Origin: Shigella phage ESh26 | Sequence record: ON528736 | DNA: 64,000 nt | Strand: one strand, 5' to 3' | Part shown: positions 19,047 to 52,450 of the stretch, one piece after another | Layout: every line of letters starts with the position of its first letter | Numbering within the stretch: the first letter of the stretch is position 1 | Position numbers and translations under genes: made by a program | Notes under the pieces: model-generated | Database searches by the model: none | Told to the model about the DNA's origin: nothing | Seen by the model: only the letters and a program-made list of their open reading frames with translations

Positions 19047-20457
<1,411 letters not shown>

Positions 20458-20461
<4 letters not shown>

Positions 20462-48132: not shown

Positions 48133-48282
48133 TTACTGCATGACTGTGATAACTGTCATGATAACACGTTGAATTCCGAATGCAAGAAGACCTCCTGCTA
48201 CAGCTGGAACAACACCTAAACCCGCCAGTAAAATGCTACCAGATACTAATGCAGCGCTTGTAATACCTATAAATGGACTCAT
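48133..48282 (-). CDS. Small hydrophobic membrane protein (about 49 aa)
   Basis: ATG overlaps the gene 52 stop (ATGA); MSPFIGITSAALVSGSILLAGLGVVPAVAGGLLAFGIQRVIMTVITVMQ. Confidence 0.4.
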   Translation of the reverse strand: MSPFIGITSAALVSGSILLAGLGVVPAVAGGLLAFGIQRVIMTVITVMQ

Positions 48283-49607
48283 TTGATTTCCTCTAAATCT
48301 TTGGTGTATTCTGTAACTACATCAGTAGTTTTCCAATATTCGTTTTCTTCTTTTTTAGATTTAGCTTCTTCAGCAAGTTTCTTTGCTTCGTCGGAAGTCA
48401 TATGAAAAATGTTCATTCCAACTAGTTTATCAACATAAGAAGAATACATATCAATTTTAGAAAGTTCTTCTGTCAGTTCTTTACGAGTTTTACCTTGTAC
48501 AACAATTTCACCTGAAATTACTTTCTTAATGAAATGTGCCTTGGCAAAGGCTAAACGAAATGCTGATTCAGTTTCTTTGATTTTGTTATCAATTCGTTTC
48601 TGAACATAAGTTTTACGAACTTCAACGAAGTCTTTGATTAAATCAACTACGTTATCGTAAACTTGCAGCTTTCCTTTCTCATTAATAACAGTAATATTCT
48701 GGGAACGACGCTCAATCAACCCGAAGTCTTTCATAATTTTCGCGTGACGTTCTTCTTCATTATCGCTCAAAGAGTATTCTTTGCGGAATTTAACTTTGAA
48801 GCCAAAACCATGCTCACCACAAGCATCATCCCACGTAATGAAGCCTTTATCTTCAAGCGGATCTAAGATTTTACTCACATAAGTTTCACGATCATACTTA
48901 TACGGAATCTCAGTGATATTCATTTGAGTTCGTGAAGTAAACTTGTACGTTCCACGAATTTCATATTGACCGTCAATTTCAACGACTTCACCACGAAATT
49001 CTGGGAATTCTACCTTCGGTTTAGTTACTTTCTTTCCTTGAAGAGCTTGTAGTACAGCTTTCTTGACAGAAGAAACACTATGAGGAAGAATGTAAGTTGC
49101 ATAACCAGTTGCAATACCGGAAACACCGTTAAGAAGAACAGTAGGAATAATAGGCAAATAGAAAGCAGGCGGAATGTGTTCTTTATCTTGATGTACCGGA
49201 GCATATTCAGTATCTTTATATACGCTATAGAAATTTTTACTTACACGAGCAAAAATATAACGACTTGCCGCTGCTTTTTGAACGGTACGAGAACCAAAGT
49301 TTCCTTGACCATCTAACAAAGGAAAGTTATTATTCCAAGTATTAGCCATCAAAGCACCGGCGTCTTGTGCAGAGTTTTCACCATGATGATATCCAAGGTC
49401 CGCTACACCACCTGCAATAGAAGCGAGTTTGTGAAACTTATCTTTATTTCCTCGTGCCAAATCAAGAGCTCGAGCAATAACAAATCGTTGAACTGGCTTA
49501 AATCCATCAATCATATTTGGGATAGCACGATTTTCAACCGTGTACATAGCATAAGCCAATGCTTCATTATCAATGATACTTTTTAAATCGCGATTATTCA
49601 GTTGCAT
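48279..49607 (-). CDS. 52: DNA topoisomerase II medium subunit gp52
   Basis: 442 aa as in T4 gp52; GyrA-like cleavage-religation domain. Confidence 0.95.
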   Translation of the reverse strand: MQLNNRDLKSIIDNEALAYAMYTVENRAIPNMIDGFKPVQRFVIARALDLARGNKDKFHKLASIAGGVADLGYHHGENSAQDAGALMANTWNNNFPLLDGQGNFGSRTVQKAAASRYIFARVSKNFYSVYKDTEYAPVHQDKEHIPPAFYLPIIPTVLLNGVSGIATGYATYILPHSVSSVKKAVLQALQGKKVTKPKVEFPEFRGEVVEIDGQYEIRGTYKFTSRTQMNITEIPYKYDRETYVSKILDPLEDKGFITWDDACGEHGFGFKVKFRKEYSLSDNEEERHAKIMKDFGLIERRSQNITVINEKGKLQVYDNVVDLIKDFVEVRKTYVQKRIDNKIKETESAFRLAFAKAHFIKKVISGEIVVQGKTRKELTEELSKIDMYSSYVDKLVGMNIFHMTSDEAKKLAEEAKSKKEENEYWKTTDVVTEYTKDLEEIK

Positions 49608-49611
49608 AAAT

Positions 49612-49752
49612 TTACCATACTAGTGAATGTAGTGCCATAATAACATCAGAAATGAAAAGCACGACTTGAATTAATCCGAACATTACTCCATAATATAGTG
49701 CTACTAATAAAGTAGCAAGGGCTAATGAATAGCCCAAGATTTTCTTAATCAT
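49612..49752 (-). CDS. Possible small hydrophobic peptide (about 46 aa)
   Basis: Hand-called; MIKKILGYSLALATLLVALYYGVMFGLIQVV... Confidence 0.3.
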   Translation of the reverse strand: MIKKILGYSLALATLLVALYYGVMFGLIQVVLFISDVIMALHSLVW

Positions 49753-49903
49753 TAGTAGATAACAACACAAATGTTAAATATGCACACATACCCTGGGCTA
49801 AAGCTTGTGAAAACACACTGCTAGCATCGATACAGATAGTTAAAACACATGCTACTATCCAACAAACAAATGAAATAACTCCTAATAATTTTGCGATATT
49901 CAT
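49746..49903 (-). CDS. Possible small hydrophobic peptide (about 52 aa); ac candidate
   Basis: Hand-called; MNIAKLLGVISFVCWIVACVLTICIDASSVF...; in T4 the ac gene lies between 52 and stp. Confidence 0.3.
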
Positions 49904-49910
49904 ATTTTCC

Positions 49911-49991
49911 TCACTGGCGTCCAAAGACGCCTTTTGTTTTAAGATTGTTACGATAGAACTGCATCACATGTTCGTTATGGAAATTACTCAT
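49911..49991 (-). CDS. stp: Stp peptide (26 aa), activator of the host PrrC anticodon nuclease
   Basis: Translation [26 protein letters not shown] matches T4 Stp as recalled. Confidence 0.75.
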
Positions 49992-50157
49992 ACACACCAC
50001 ACATTTTGCATAAACGTTCAAAACAGATAAATCCGCCACCTACACACATCACGACAGCCACATTATCATTAAGAGGTAGACCTAAAGCCGTAAAGATTCC
50101 AGTCAATGTGAATAAGGCTAAAACTAATAGGTAACCCATTACAAATAGAGCTTTCAT
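49984..50157 (-). CDS. Possible small hydrophobic protein (57 aa)
   Basis: ATG overlaps ndd stop; its stop overlaps stp start; [22 protein letters not shown]... Confidence 0.35.
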
Positions 50158-50612
50158 TAGTATGCCTGCAAAACAAATTTAAAGTTATCAGCCAACATAC
50201 GGTTCATTTCTTCAAGCGTTTGATACTCAGAATGATGATTACGAGTAAACGCCAAAGCTAACTGACCTTTTCCAAATCCTGTCGTCAAAGGTTTCATCTT
50301 AGAAGTAGGAAGATAAAATACTGTGTATGGAACATTGTTATTTGCAATAGTACGCGCAAGCTGAGACCGACGCTGACGAATATGACTTAGAACTGCACTG
50401 AACCCTTGTTTAGAACGCTGATTACCTACATAAAATCGTGCAGATACACACGGACTATCAAATGGACCACCAAATTTGCTCACTAAAAAGTAAAATCCAG
50501 GGTTAGACAAAATGTCTTTATGCGGAGTTCCAAAAACCCATTCACCGCCCTTGATTGTACCAATAACAGTTGCGCCTGCATTATTCAAATCAGTAACAGT
50601 CATATATTTCAT
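50157..50612 (-). CDS. ndd: Nucleoid disruption protein Ndd
   Basis: 151 aa as in T4 Ndd; synteny. Confidence 0.85.
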
Positions 50613-50672
50613 GTTAATTTCCTCTAATTATTTTCTACTCCAAGGCCGCATGAATACATACGGCCCGATAAA

Positions 50673-50888
50673 TTAATCGTCGCAGTCGACGCTCAATTCC
50701 CAAAACTCTTCTACGGTATAAGTTTCAGTATCATTTTCAATACAGAAACGTTCATTGCTGTTGTTTGCTAAAGTAGCATTAACTGTCATTTTCTCGCTAG
50801 TGCTCTTAAGAGGTGAAATACGAATTAACTGATCACCATTATCTAAGCAAAAAATTTCACCAACTTTTACATCTTTAAAAATTTTCAT
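50673..50888 (-). CDS. Hypothetical protein (71 aa)
   Basis: ORF. Confidence 0.5.
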   Translation of the reverse strand: MKIFKDVKVGEIFCLDNGDQLIRISPLKSTSEKMTVNATLANNSNERFCIENDTETYTVEEFWELSVDCDD

Positions 50889-51003
50889 AATTCACCTCAG
50901 GGAGTATAAAATCCAAATGCAGTTGTTGACCATCCCATCCAATACGGAAAATTTGCACCAACGTAAAACATGAGAATATAAAACCAACCACTCAGCAAAT
51001 TTA

Positions 51004-51222
51004 TCATTTTACACCATTCCAAATTGTTTCAACCACAGATTTTAAGCCATTTTGATGAATGTCCATTCCGACAACCGCCATCAAATAAATTCCAACTACA
51101 ACTGAACCTAAGGCAAAAATCAGCATGAAAATGAATAAAGCTGGAAAAATATTATCGAAAAACCATTTAATAAATGTAAAAGCACTGCGTTTACGCTTCA
51201 TATTTTCCTCACATAAATCCAA
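51004..51222 (-). CDS. Small membrane protein (about 72 aa)
   Basis: Hydrophobic segment ALFIFMLIFALGSVVVGIYLMAVV; tracked start may be TTG. Confidence 0.45.
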   Translation of the reverse strand: MDLCEENMKRKRSAFTFIKWFFDNIFPALFIFMLIFALGSVVVGIYLMAVVGMDIHQNGLKSVVETIWNGVK

Positions 51223-51322
51223 AGTAAGCGTTTAATACATCAATCATTAAAACGATTGGGAATATACTCAAAACTATTAATATTATAACTACATTCCATA
51301 TAGCTTTAACAATCTTTTTCAT
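51209..51322 (-). CDS. Small membrane peptide (about 37 aa)
   Basis: Internal ATG with GGAGG Shine-Dalgarno; MKKIVKAIWNVVIILIVLSIFPIVLMIDVLNAYFGFM. Confidence 0.35.
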   Translation of the reverse strand: MKKIVKAIWNVVIILIVLSIFPIVLMIDVLNAYFGFM

Positions 51323-51350
51323 TTTCTGTTCCTCCGTAGTTGATAGGGTA

Positions 51351-51380
51351 ATAATACCACAGAGGAACAGTCTTGTAAAC
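51351..51380 (-). promoter_or_regulatory. Early promoter (GTTTAC-N18-TATTAT)
   Basis: Read on the reverse complement; upstream of the small membrane peptide. Confidence 0.45.
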
Positions 51381-51596
51381 AACTTTTTAAAAATATTCGT
51401 AATAAATGTGAATACCAATCACCACTGCCGAAACTTGCGCAACCCACCATGCACAAGCAATAAGTACAGAATTCAAAATTTTCATAATAACCTCATTACA
51501 AAAGTAAATATTAAACAAATTAATGGAATACTAACTAACCAAACAAAACACCACCACAATGAACTCATAGTTCAATCTCAACGATTTTCATTTTAC

Positions 51597-51803
51597 TCAA
51601 TAATCTGCTAAAAGATTGACGATTGCATCACGAAGACACTTATTCGCAATACGTTTAAGAGCAATTTCAGTTTCTGGAGCATTTTGAATAATCATTGAAT
51701 TCAATTCAGCCTCAGCAAACTGAAGTTCTTTAACTAATTCAGCTTTATATTTTCCTTGCCCTTTCTTAGCTTTTGCTCGTTTTAATTCAGCTGTAGTAAA
51801 CAT
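51597..51803 (-). CDS. Hypothetical protein (68 aa)
   Basis: Internal ATG with GGAG Shine-Dalgarno; tracked ORF 51597..51911 is over-extended through the promoter. Confidence 0.45.
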   Translation of the reverse strand: MFTTAELKRAKAKKGQGKYKAELVKELQFAEAELNSMIIQNAPETEIALKRIANKCLRDAIVNLLADY

Positions 51804-51844
51804 TTTATTCTCCAAATCCGTATCAGTTGATAGTTGATAGTTGT

Positions 51845-51874
51845 ATAGTACCACAGTCCTTGTGGTATGTAAAC
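51845..51874 (-). promoter_or_regulatory. Early promoter (GTTTAC-N18-TACTAT), third copy of the conserved cassette
   Basis: Near-identical to the cassettes at about 30765 and 48045. Confidence 0.5.
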
Positions 51875-51892
51875 CGTTTTGTGAAAATTTTT

Positions 51893-52450
51893 TTAAATGG
51901 AAAGATACCATCCGTTGTAGTTGCTTTTTCTTACAACCTTACGAAGGTCTTCTCTATCACCGATGAACTTCGGAGTGTACTGGATGACACCTGGGTGAAT
52001 TTCTTTAGTGTTGAATATAATTATACAGTCAGCGACCTGATGATTCAGAATGGGCCCTAGATTTATTCCAGAACCGTATGGATACTCTCCGCTGCATCCT
52101 GTTGTTACAGAAATCCAACGTGAGTCAGTTTGATGTGTCTTAACTTCTACACGAAGCCCGCAGTATCTTGGATGCGCCAATACATCCCATGCGTATGTAT
52201 ACGGGTCATTAACATCCTCTTGGCCTTTGTTAACATACCCGCTTAGCCAATCTGCTACAAAAAACTCTGCGTACACCGCGATACGACATCTTTCGATAAC
52301 TTCTGCTTTATCCTGGTTCGGGTTTTGTTTTAAAGAGTATCTTGCTGTATCAGCAATTTTGACCTTCATTTCACTAGTCAAGTCACTGTTCGATAGGGTA
52401 AATGTCGGAATCTGAAATAGTCTCTGTAAACCCGGATTCGTTTTCTGCAT
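51893..52450 (-). CDS. denB: Endonuclease IV
   Basis: 185 aa as in T4 DenB; position between rIIB and ndd. Confidence 0.85.
   Translation of the reverse strand: MQKTNPGLQRLFQIPTFTLSNSDLTSEMKVKIADTARYSLKQNPNQDKAEVIERCRIAVYAEFFVADWLSGYVNKGQEDVNDPYTYAWDVLAHPRYCGLRVEVKTHQTDSRWISVTTGCSGEYPYGSGINLGPILNHQVADCIIIFNTKEIHPGVIQYTPKFIGDREDLRKVVRKSNYNGWYLSI

Follow-up and report, generated by a model that had tools for sequence, protein, structure and literature searches.

Shigella phage ESh26 very probably carries orthologues of the phage T4 genes stp, pseT and rnlA in a T4-like genome, with a Stp peptide predicted to unmask the anticodon nuclease PrrC, and with polynucleotide kinase/phosphatase (Pnkp) and RNA ligase 1 (Rnl1) predicted to repair the cleaved tRNA-Lys. 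The three genes lie in a 64,000-nucleotide stretch of ESh26 DNA (sequence record ON528736), referred to here as the window. All three are present with exact or near-exact identity to their T4 counterparts and occupy syntenic positions, the checked catalytic residues of the two enzymes are intact, and nothing in the sequence contradicts a trigger-plus-repair reading. The triad is already known T4 biology, and nothing about it is new.

The window is part of a mosaic Tequatrovirus (T4-like) genome. In the stp region the closest DNA matches, at 97-99% identity, are vB_EcoM-101117BS1 (MZ234018; hereafter 101117BS1), ECP2301, ime09, and Sf24. Across window positions 40000-64000 no record in the phage collection matches throughout, the best covering 92% at approximately 97% identity.

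Identification of the stp gene

A first-pass annotation had proposed a 26-codon open reading frame at positions 49911-49991 as a homologue of T4 stp. The frame exists exactly there and its peptide was quoted correctly; the strand, which had been left unstated, is the minus strand.

49911..49991, minus strand (read 49991->49911): stp, a 26-codon ORF plus stop, its translation identical to T4 Stp

The proposed match to T4 Stp is borne out by tblastn and by direct comparison with T4: the alignment is full-length with 100% identity, all 26 residues being the same as those of T4 Stp (NP_049878.1; NC_000866 165505-165585), a protein annotated in T4 as 'activator of host PrrC lysyl-tRNA endonuclease' (NC_000866). 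The two genes differ at three bases, all of them synonymous and none non-synonymous. The N-proximal 18 residues, which include the cluster of mutations at residues 4-14 described in T4, are consequently intact. With Pfam PF08133 ('Anticodon nuclease activator family'; gathering cut-off of 25) the peptide reaches 75.3 bits, covering residues 1-26 of the 26-position profile, and matches PHROG 6763 with an E value of 4e-21. A tblastn search of 50,697 phage records returned a match in 817, of which 422 are at least 99% identical; among the matches listed, those that are full-length with 100% identity have E values of 1e-10 to 3e-10. Such a match is, on these comparisons, far beyond chance expectation for a 26-codon ORF.

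The longest mechanically called ORF at this site is 42 residues long, starting from a GTG at 50039. This start was rejected because the extension falls in sequence that T4 does not have, which leaves the ATG at 49991 as the homologous stp start. A plus-strand reading of 49911-49991 was also rejected, as it contains no meaningful ORF. A six-frame search of the whole window revealed no second Stp-like motif, and the gene is present in a single copy.

In GenBank and RefSeq, many T4-like phage records leave stp unannotated despite 100% identity, with the feature at that site given as 'ndd' or 'none', and in phage EO1 the site is mislabelled 'naphthalene 1,2-dioxygenase'. Because many pipelines apply ORF length cut-offs that stp does not reach, flagging this 26-codon gene was both correct and useful as annotation.

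Genomic context and expression signals of stp

The stp gene sits within a minus-strand array in the order ndd, a 57-aa ORF, stp, ac, 52.1, and gene 52, which is the T4 order apart from the 57-aa ORF. The peptide, its orientation, the presence of ndd upstream, and the ac/52.1/52 series downstream are all shared with T4.

50157..50612, minus strand: ndd, nucleoid disruption protein (Pfam PF06591, 294 bits, and synteny); upstream neighbour as in T4
49984..50157, minus strand: hydrophobic 57-aa ORF between ndd and stp (alignment with T4 and 101117BS1; PHROG 5941, function unknown)
49745..49903, minus strand: ac, acridine resistance membrane protein (synteny, alignment, PHROG 2501); downstream neighbour as in T4
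48279..49607, minus strand: gene 52 (T4 gene order)

Relative to T4, the window carries a 166-bp insert here, which encodes the 57-aa ORF. The closest DNA matches in the stp region, 101117BS1 and similar phages, have the ORF at the corresponding site, and tblastn gave no match to it in the T4 regions that were fetched. Neither this ORF nor ac nor the 106-aa ORF beside pseT described below has a Pfam match, and their PHROG matches are all to families of unknown function.

The 57-aa ORF is tightly packed between its neighbours, its start overlapping the ndd stop (TAATG) and its TAA stop overlapping the stp start (ATGAGTAA). In T4, by contrast, the stp ATG overlaps the stop codon of ndd itself. 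No good Shine-Dalgarno sequence precedes the stp ATG either in the window, where GTGGTGTGT lies upstream, or in T4. Because the ATG overlaps the stop of the upstream ORF and lacks a good Shine-Dalgarno, stp is most likely translated by coupling to that ORF; in the window the 57-aa ORF has probably taken over this coupling, and as a membrane ORF overlapping the stp start it could alter Stp dosage. The Shine-Dalgarno of ac (GAGG; TGAGG) in turn overlaps the stp stop codon. A scan for sigma-70 promoters across 49400-52400 found 14 sites compared with 11.9 +/- 4.3 in shuffled sequence, and since this is no enrichment, the scan says nothing about stp expression.

Small variations are also evident downstream of stp. 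The window ac is one codon longer than T4 ac, and in 101117BS1 stp and ac are separated by a second ac-like gene (L001 1915-2070) that the window lacks. The extra ac-like gene and the longer ac mark this short stretch as a hotspot for small-gene insertion.

The repair genes pseT and rnlA

The first-pass annotation had also assigned a polynucleotide kinase and an RNA ligase 1 to the window, and both assignments hold, at exactly the positions proposed.

19236..20141, minus strand: pseT, polynucleotide 5'-kinase / 3'-phosphatase (Pnkp), end healing, 301 aa
21893..23017, minus strand: rnlA (gene 63), RNA ligase 1 (Rnl1), sealing and tail-fibre attachment catalyst, 374 aa

PseT is 95.7% identical to the T4 protein and matches the T4 Pnkp structure (PDB 1ltq) over residues 1-301 with an E value of 2e-202, with an AAA_33 kinase domain at residues 5-148 and a HAD_PNKP phosphatase domain at 159-301. 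None of the 13 substitutions falls at a checked catalytic position: K15, S16, D35, R38, R126, D165, and D167 (the last two in DxDxT), which we take to be the catalytic positions of the T4 enzyme, are kept together with the other residues checked, and both the P-loop and the DxDxT motif are intact. RnlA is 98.4% identical to its T4 counterpart and matches T4 Rnl1 (PDB 2c5u) over its full length with an E value of 6e-253. Its six substitutions likewise avoid the checked catalytic positions, and K99-E100-D101-G102 (the KxDG motif, with K99 as the motif I lysine of the nucleotidyltransferase domain), E159, E227, K240, and K242 are all retained. Two Pfam domains are recognized, RNA_lig_T4_1 (PF09511) at residues 52-246 and T4_Rnl1_C (PF20819) at 253-374, the latter a C-terminal domain linked to tRNA specificity.

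Both proteins thus match T4 over their full length with motifs intact, and their gene neighbours cd.5, pseT.1, pseT.2, pseT.3, alc, and denA match those of T4. The window differs in having an additional 106-aa ORF (20141-20461, minus strand; PHROG 2364, function unknown) between pseT and pseT.1, overlapping the pseT start and without counterpart in the T4 pseT region. The stp gene belongs to a different cluster from pseT and rnlA, approximately 27-30 kb away, and the three genes are a functional set rather than a genomic one.

Stp-like peptides in siphophages

The tblastn search with Stp also matched small siphophage genomes of 40-52 kb, and the siphophage records that contain a Stp-like peptide with an HNEH-MQ-YR core number well over 100, across Kagunavirus, Drexlerviridae (Nouzillyvirus and Tlsvirus), Segzyvirus, and Skatevirus. 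From six of these phages an ORF of 25-27 codons with a plausible ribosome-binding site was extracted.

RP180 (Kagunavirus), L004 3001-3078: Stp-like peptide of 25 aa
Ro145clw (Kagunavirus), L005 3001-3078: Stp-like peptide of 25 aa
PH1062 (Nouzillyvirus), L006 1501-1578: Stp-like peptide MSSHHNEHVMQLYRHNLKSHGRLGK
PHB07 (Tlsvirus), L007 1501-1581: Stp-like peptide of 26 aa
LPSTLL (Segzyvirus), L008 1501-1581: Stp-like peptide MSNWHNEHIMQWYRRRIKAITSSYEV
seszw (Skatevirus), L009 1501-1584: Stp-like peptide MINWHNEHIMQWYRRRIKAIIKSYEVQ

The residues M1, H5-N6-E7-H8, M10-Q11, Y13-R14, and K18 are invariant in these six peptides and T4 Stp, and fall inside or beside the mutational cluster at residues 4-14. 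Over the first 18 codons, RP180 differs from the window stp by five synonymous and no non-synonymous changes. A reciprocal tblastn search with the LPSTLL peptide recovers the T-even stp genes, along with 129 records that share 80% identity or more with this form. These siphophage ORFs are nearly all unannotated, and no paper connecting Stp with Kagunavirus, Guernseyvirinae, Jerseyvirus, or Drexlerviridae turned up in our literature search, which covered sources other than subscription journals.

The Stp-like ORF of RP180 is the leading gene behind a terminator, a promoter-like site (TTGACT-17-TATATT), and a GGAG, and shares an overlap with the start of the gene that follows. The RP180 genome, the only siphophage genome examined in full, was also searched for a T4-like repair set, and yielded a stand-alone phosphatase only, with no annotated RNA ligase. 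The phosphatase, RP180 gp20, is a HAD_PNKP protein (69.9 bits) encoded between a dNMP-kinase-like ATPase and an exonuclease (gp19-gp21, L010 13561-15727). A similar HAD_PNKP-type gene, PHB07 gp71 (L007 2766-3054), is located 1.2 kb downstream of the stp-like ORF of that phage.

Predicted action of the triad and its other possible roles

T4 mutants defective in pnk or rli are restricted on prr+ strains of Escherichia coli, and the suppressor mutations that relieve this restriction define stp (PMC3014915). Stp alleviates type Ic restriction, by EcoprrI and EcoR124I, and not type Ia restriction (PMC3014915, PMC1484252, PMC12707154). How it blocks EcoprrI has, according to PMC12707154, yet to be explained. 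Its loss-of-function mutations cluster at residues 4-14 (PMC3014915). PrrC cleaves tRNA-Lys 5' of the wobble base, after which Pnk heals and Rnl1 seals the ends (PMC3014915, PMC1484252, PMC12707154). The account offered for the window – Stp inhibiting the type Ic enzyme EcoprrI and so unleashing PrrC, with Pnk and Rnl1 repairing the cleaved tRNA-Lys – corresponds to this published T4 story.

By analogy with T4, Stp would be made early in ESh26 infection, through coupling to the upstream ORF. On a host carrying prr (hsdM-hsdS-prrC-hsdR) it would bind the type Ic complex EcoprrI and block DNA restriction, and this block would unmask the EcoprrI-associated PrrC anticodon nuclease. PrrC, acting with GTP hydrolysis and dTTP, would then cut tRNA-Lys 5' of the wobble base to leave a 2',3'-cyclic phosphate and a 5'-OH. 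Pnkp would remove the cyclic phosphate and phosphorylate the 5' end, and Rnl1 would reseal the tRNA-Lys such that infection proceeds. In this scheme the timing of expression, EcoprrI binding, PrrC activation, and tRNA repair are all inferred from the published T4 work.

Triggering PrrC and countering it need not be the main role of these genes. Stp could act principally against type Ic enzymes or on some other target, Pnk in mRNA decay, and Rnl1 in tail-fibre attachment. Both the T4 annotation and PHROG 562 describe Rnl1 as 'RNA ligase and tail fiber protein attachment catalyst', EcoR124I is inhibited by Stp even though it is without an anticodon nuclease (PMC3014915), the siphophage Stp-like peptides head an apparent operon, and stp lies 27-30 kb from the other two genes rather than in one module with them. 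Moreover, few strains carry the optional prr locus (PMC1484252); with most E. coli strains lacking prr, the triad would have no PrrC target in most infections. Against this, it is only on prr+ hosts that T4 mutants in pseT and rnlA are known to be limited in growth, a defect that stp mutations suppress (PMC3014915), and the PF20819 domain of Rnl1 is complete. We regard a different main role as unlikely; such roles fit both the data and the published work, are in any case not mutually exclusive with a PrrC countermeasure, and the gene identifications are uncontradicted by them. The proposal that the phage carries both trigger and countermeasure therefore stands as to the identities of the three genes, with their function assigned through identity to T4 and their relevance dependent on a prr+ host.

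A hairpin within stp and selection on the peptide

The 3' end of stp contains a G+C-rich hairpin.

49916..49931, unstranded: 6-bp G+C-rich hairpin GGCGUC-UUUG-GACGCC within stp codons 21-26 (fold z ~ -2.45)

The loop is UUUG in the window as opposed to the stable UUCG tetraloop of T4, a silent change. Read on the plus strand, this hairpin precedes a T-run (TTTTGTTTTA) and was picked up as terminator-like in a scan. Phages SA21RB and G28 have a 'terminator' annotated at the same spot, and the plus-strand hairpin looks like a terminator of antisense transcripts.

These features raise the question of whether the conserved entity might be an RNA or DNA element – the G+C-rich hairpin itself, a plus-strand terminator, or an mRNA-stabilising stem-loop – rather than a peptide, the more so because the C-terminal eight Stp codons are largely dispensable for its activities, their loss having a moderate effect only (PMC3014915). 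However, the hairpin spans codons 21-26 only, whereas strict conservation is in the N-proximal 18 residues, and the siphophage homologues keep HNEH-MQ-YR without an equivalent hairpin sequence. Mutations at T4 residues 4-14 that leave the hairpin in place have already been reported to abolish the stp phenotype (PMC3014915). We consider a nucleic acid element in place of the peptide highly improbable; as hairpin and peptide can coexist, the hairpin adds to the main reading and does not replace it.

The alternative that this short frame arose by chance or is a decayed remnant, with no peptide made from it, has a practically negligible probability and is excluded by exact identity, synonymous-only divergence, and conservation across hundreds of genomes: the ORF is very short, without a clear Shine-Dalgarno, and absent from the annotation of many GenBank records, but its product is identical at 26/26 positions to T4 Stp, which has been characterised by both genetics and biochemistry (PMC3014915), the synonymous to non-synonymous differences from T4 are 3 to 0 and 422 records encode a protein at least 99% identical, distant siphophages preserve the core of the peptide although their genes have many synonymous changes, and the overlap of the stp start with the upstream stop in both T4 (ndd) and the window fits translational coupling. 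The synonymous-only differences from T4, together with the mostly synonymous changes in the first 18 codons of the siphophage homologues, indicate that the Stp peptide itself is under purifying selection.

Discussion

The stp, pseT, and rnlA triad of ESh26 restates one of the oldest worked guard-type abortive-infection systems together with the phage countermeasure to it. The published logic is shared with Ronin and other guards that sense restriction inhibitors, in which a type I Hsd complex keeps a toxic effector in check until a phage anti-restriction protein binds (bioRxiv 10.1101/2023.04.06.535777). Ronin-type guards differ in being host systems with other effectors and triggers, and nothing comparable is encoded in the window.

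The Stp-like peptides of siphophages lie outside the window and are the only lead with research value. From sequence comparison it is possible, if doubtful, that Stp is a horizontally mobile anti-type-Ic peptide, widespread in siphophages and almost wholly unannotated there. Type I enzymes would not be expected to restrict the DNA of T4, which is glucosyl-hydroxymethylated. If Stp is indeed mobile in this way, it would help to explain the presence of a restriction inhibitor in T-even phages despite their modified DNA, and the siphophages that carry Stp would be natural targets and triggers of PrrC-type guards.
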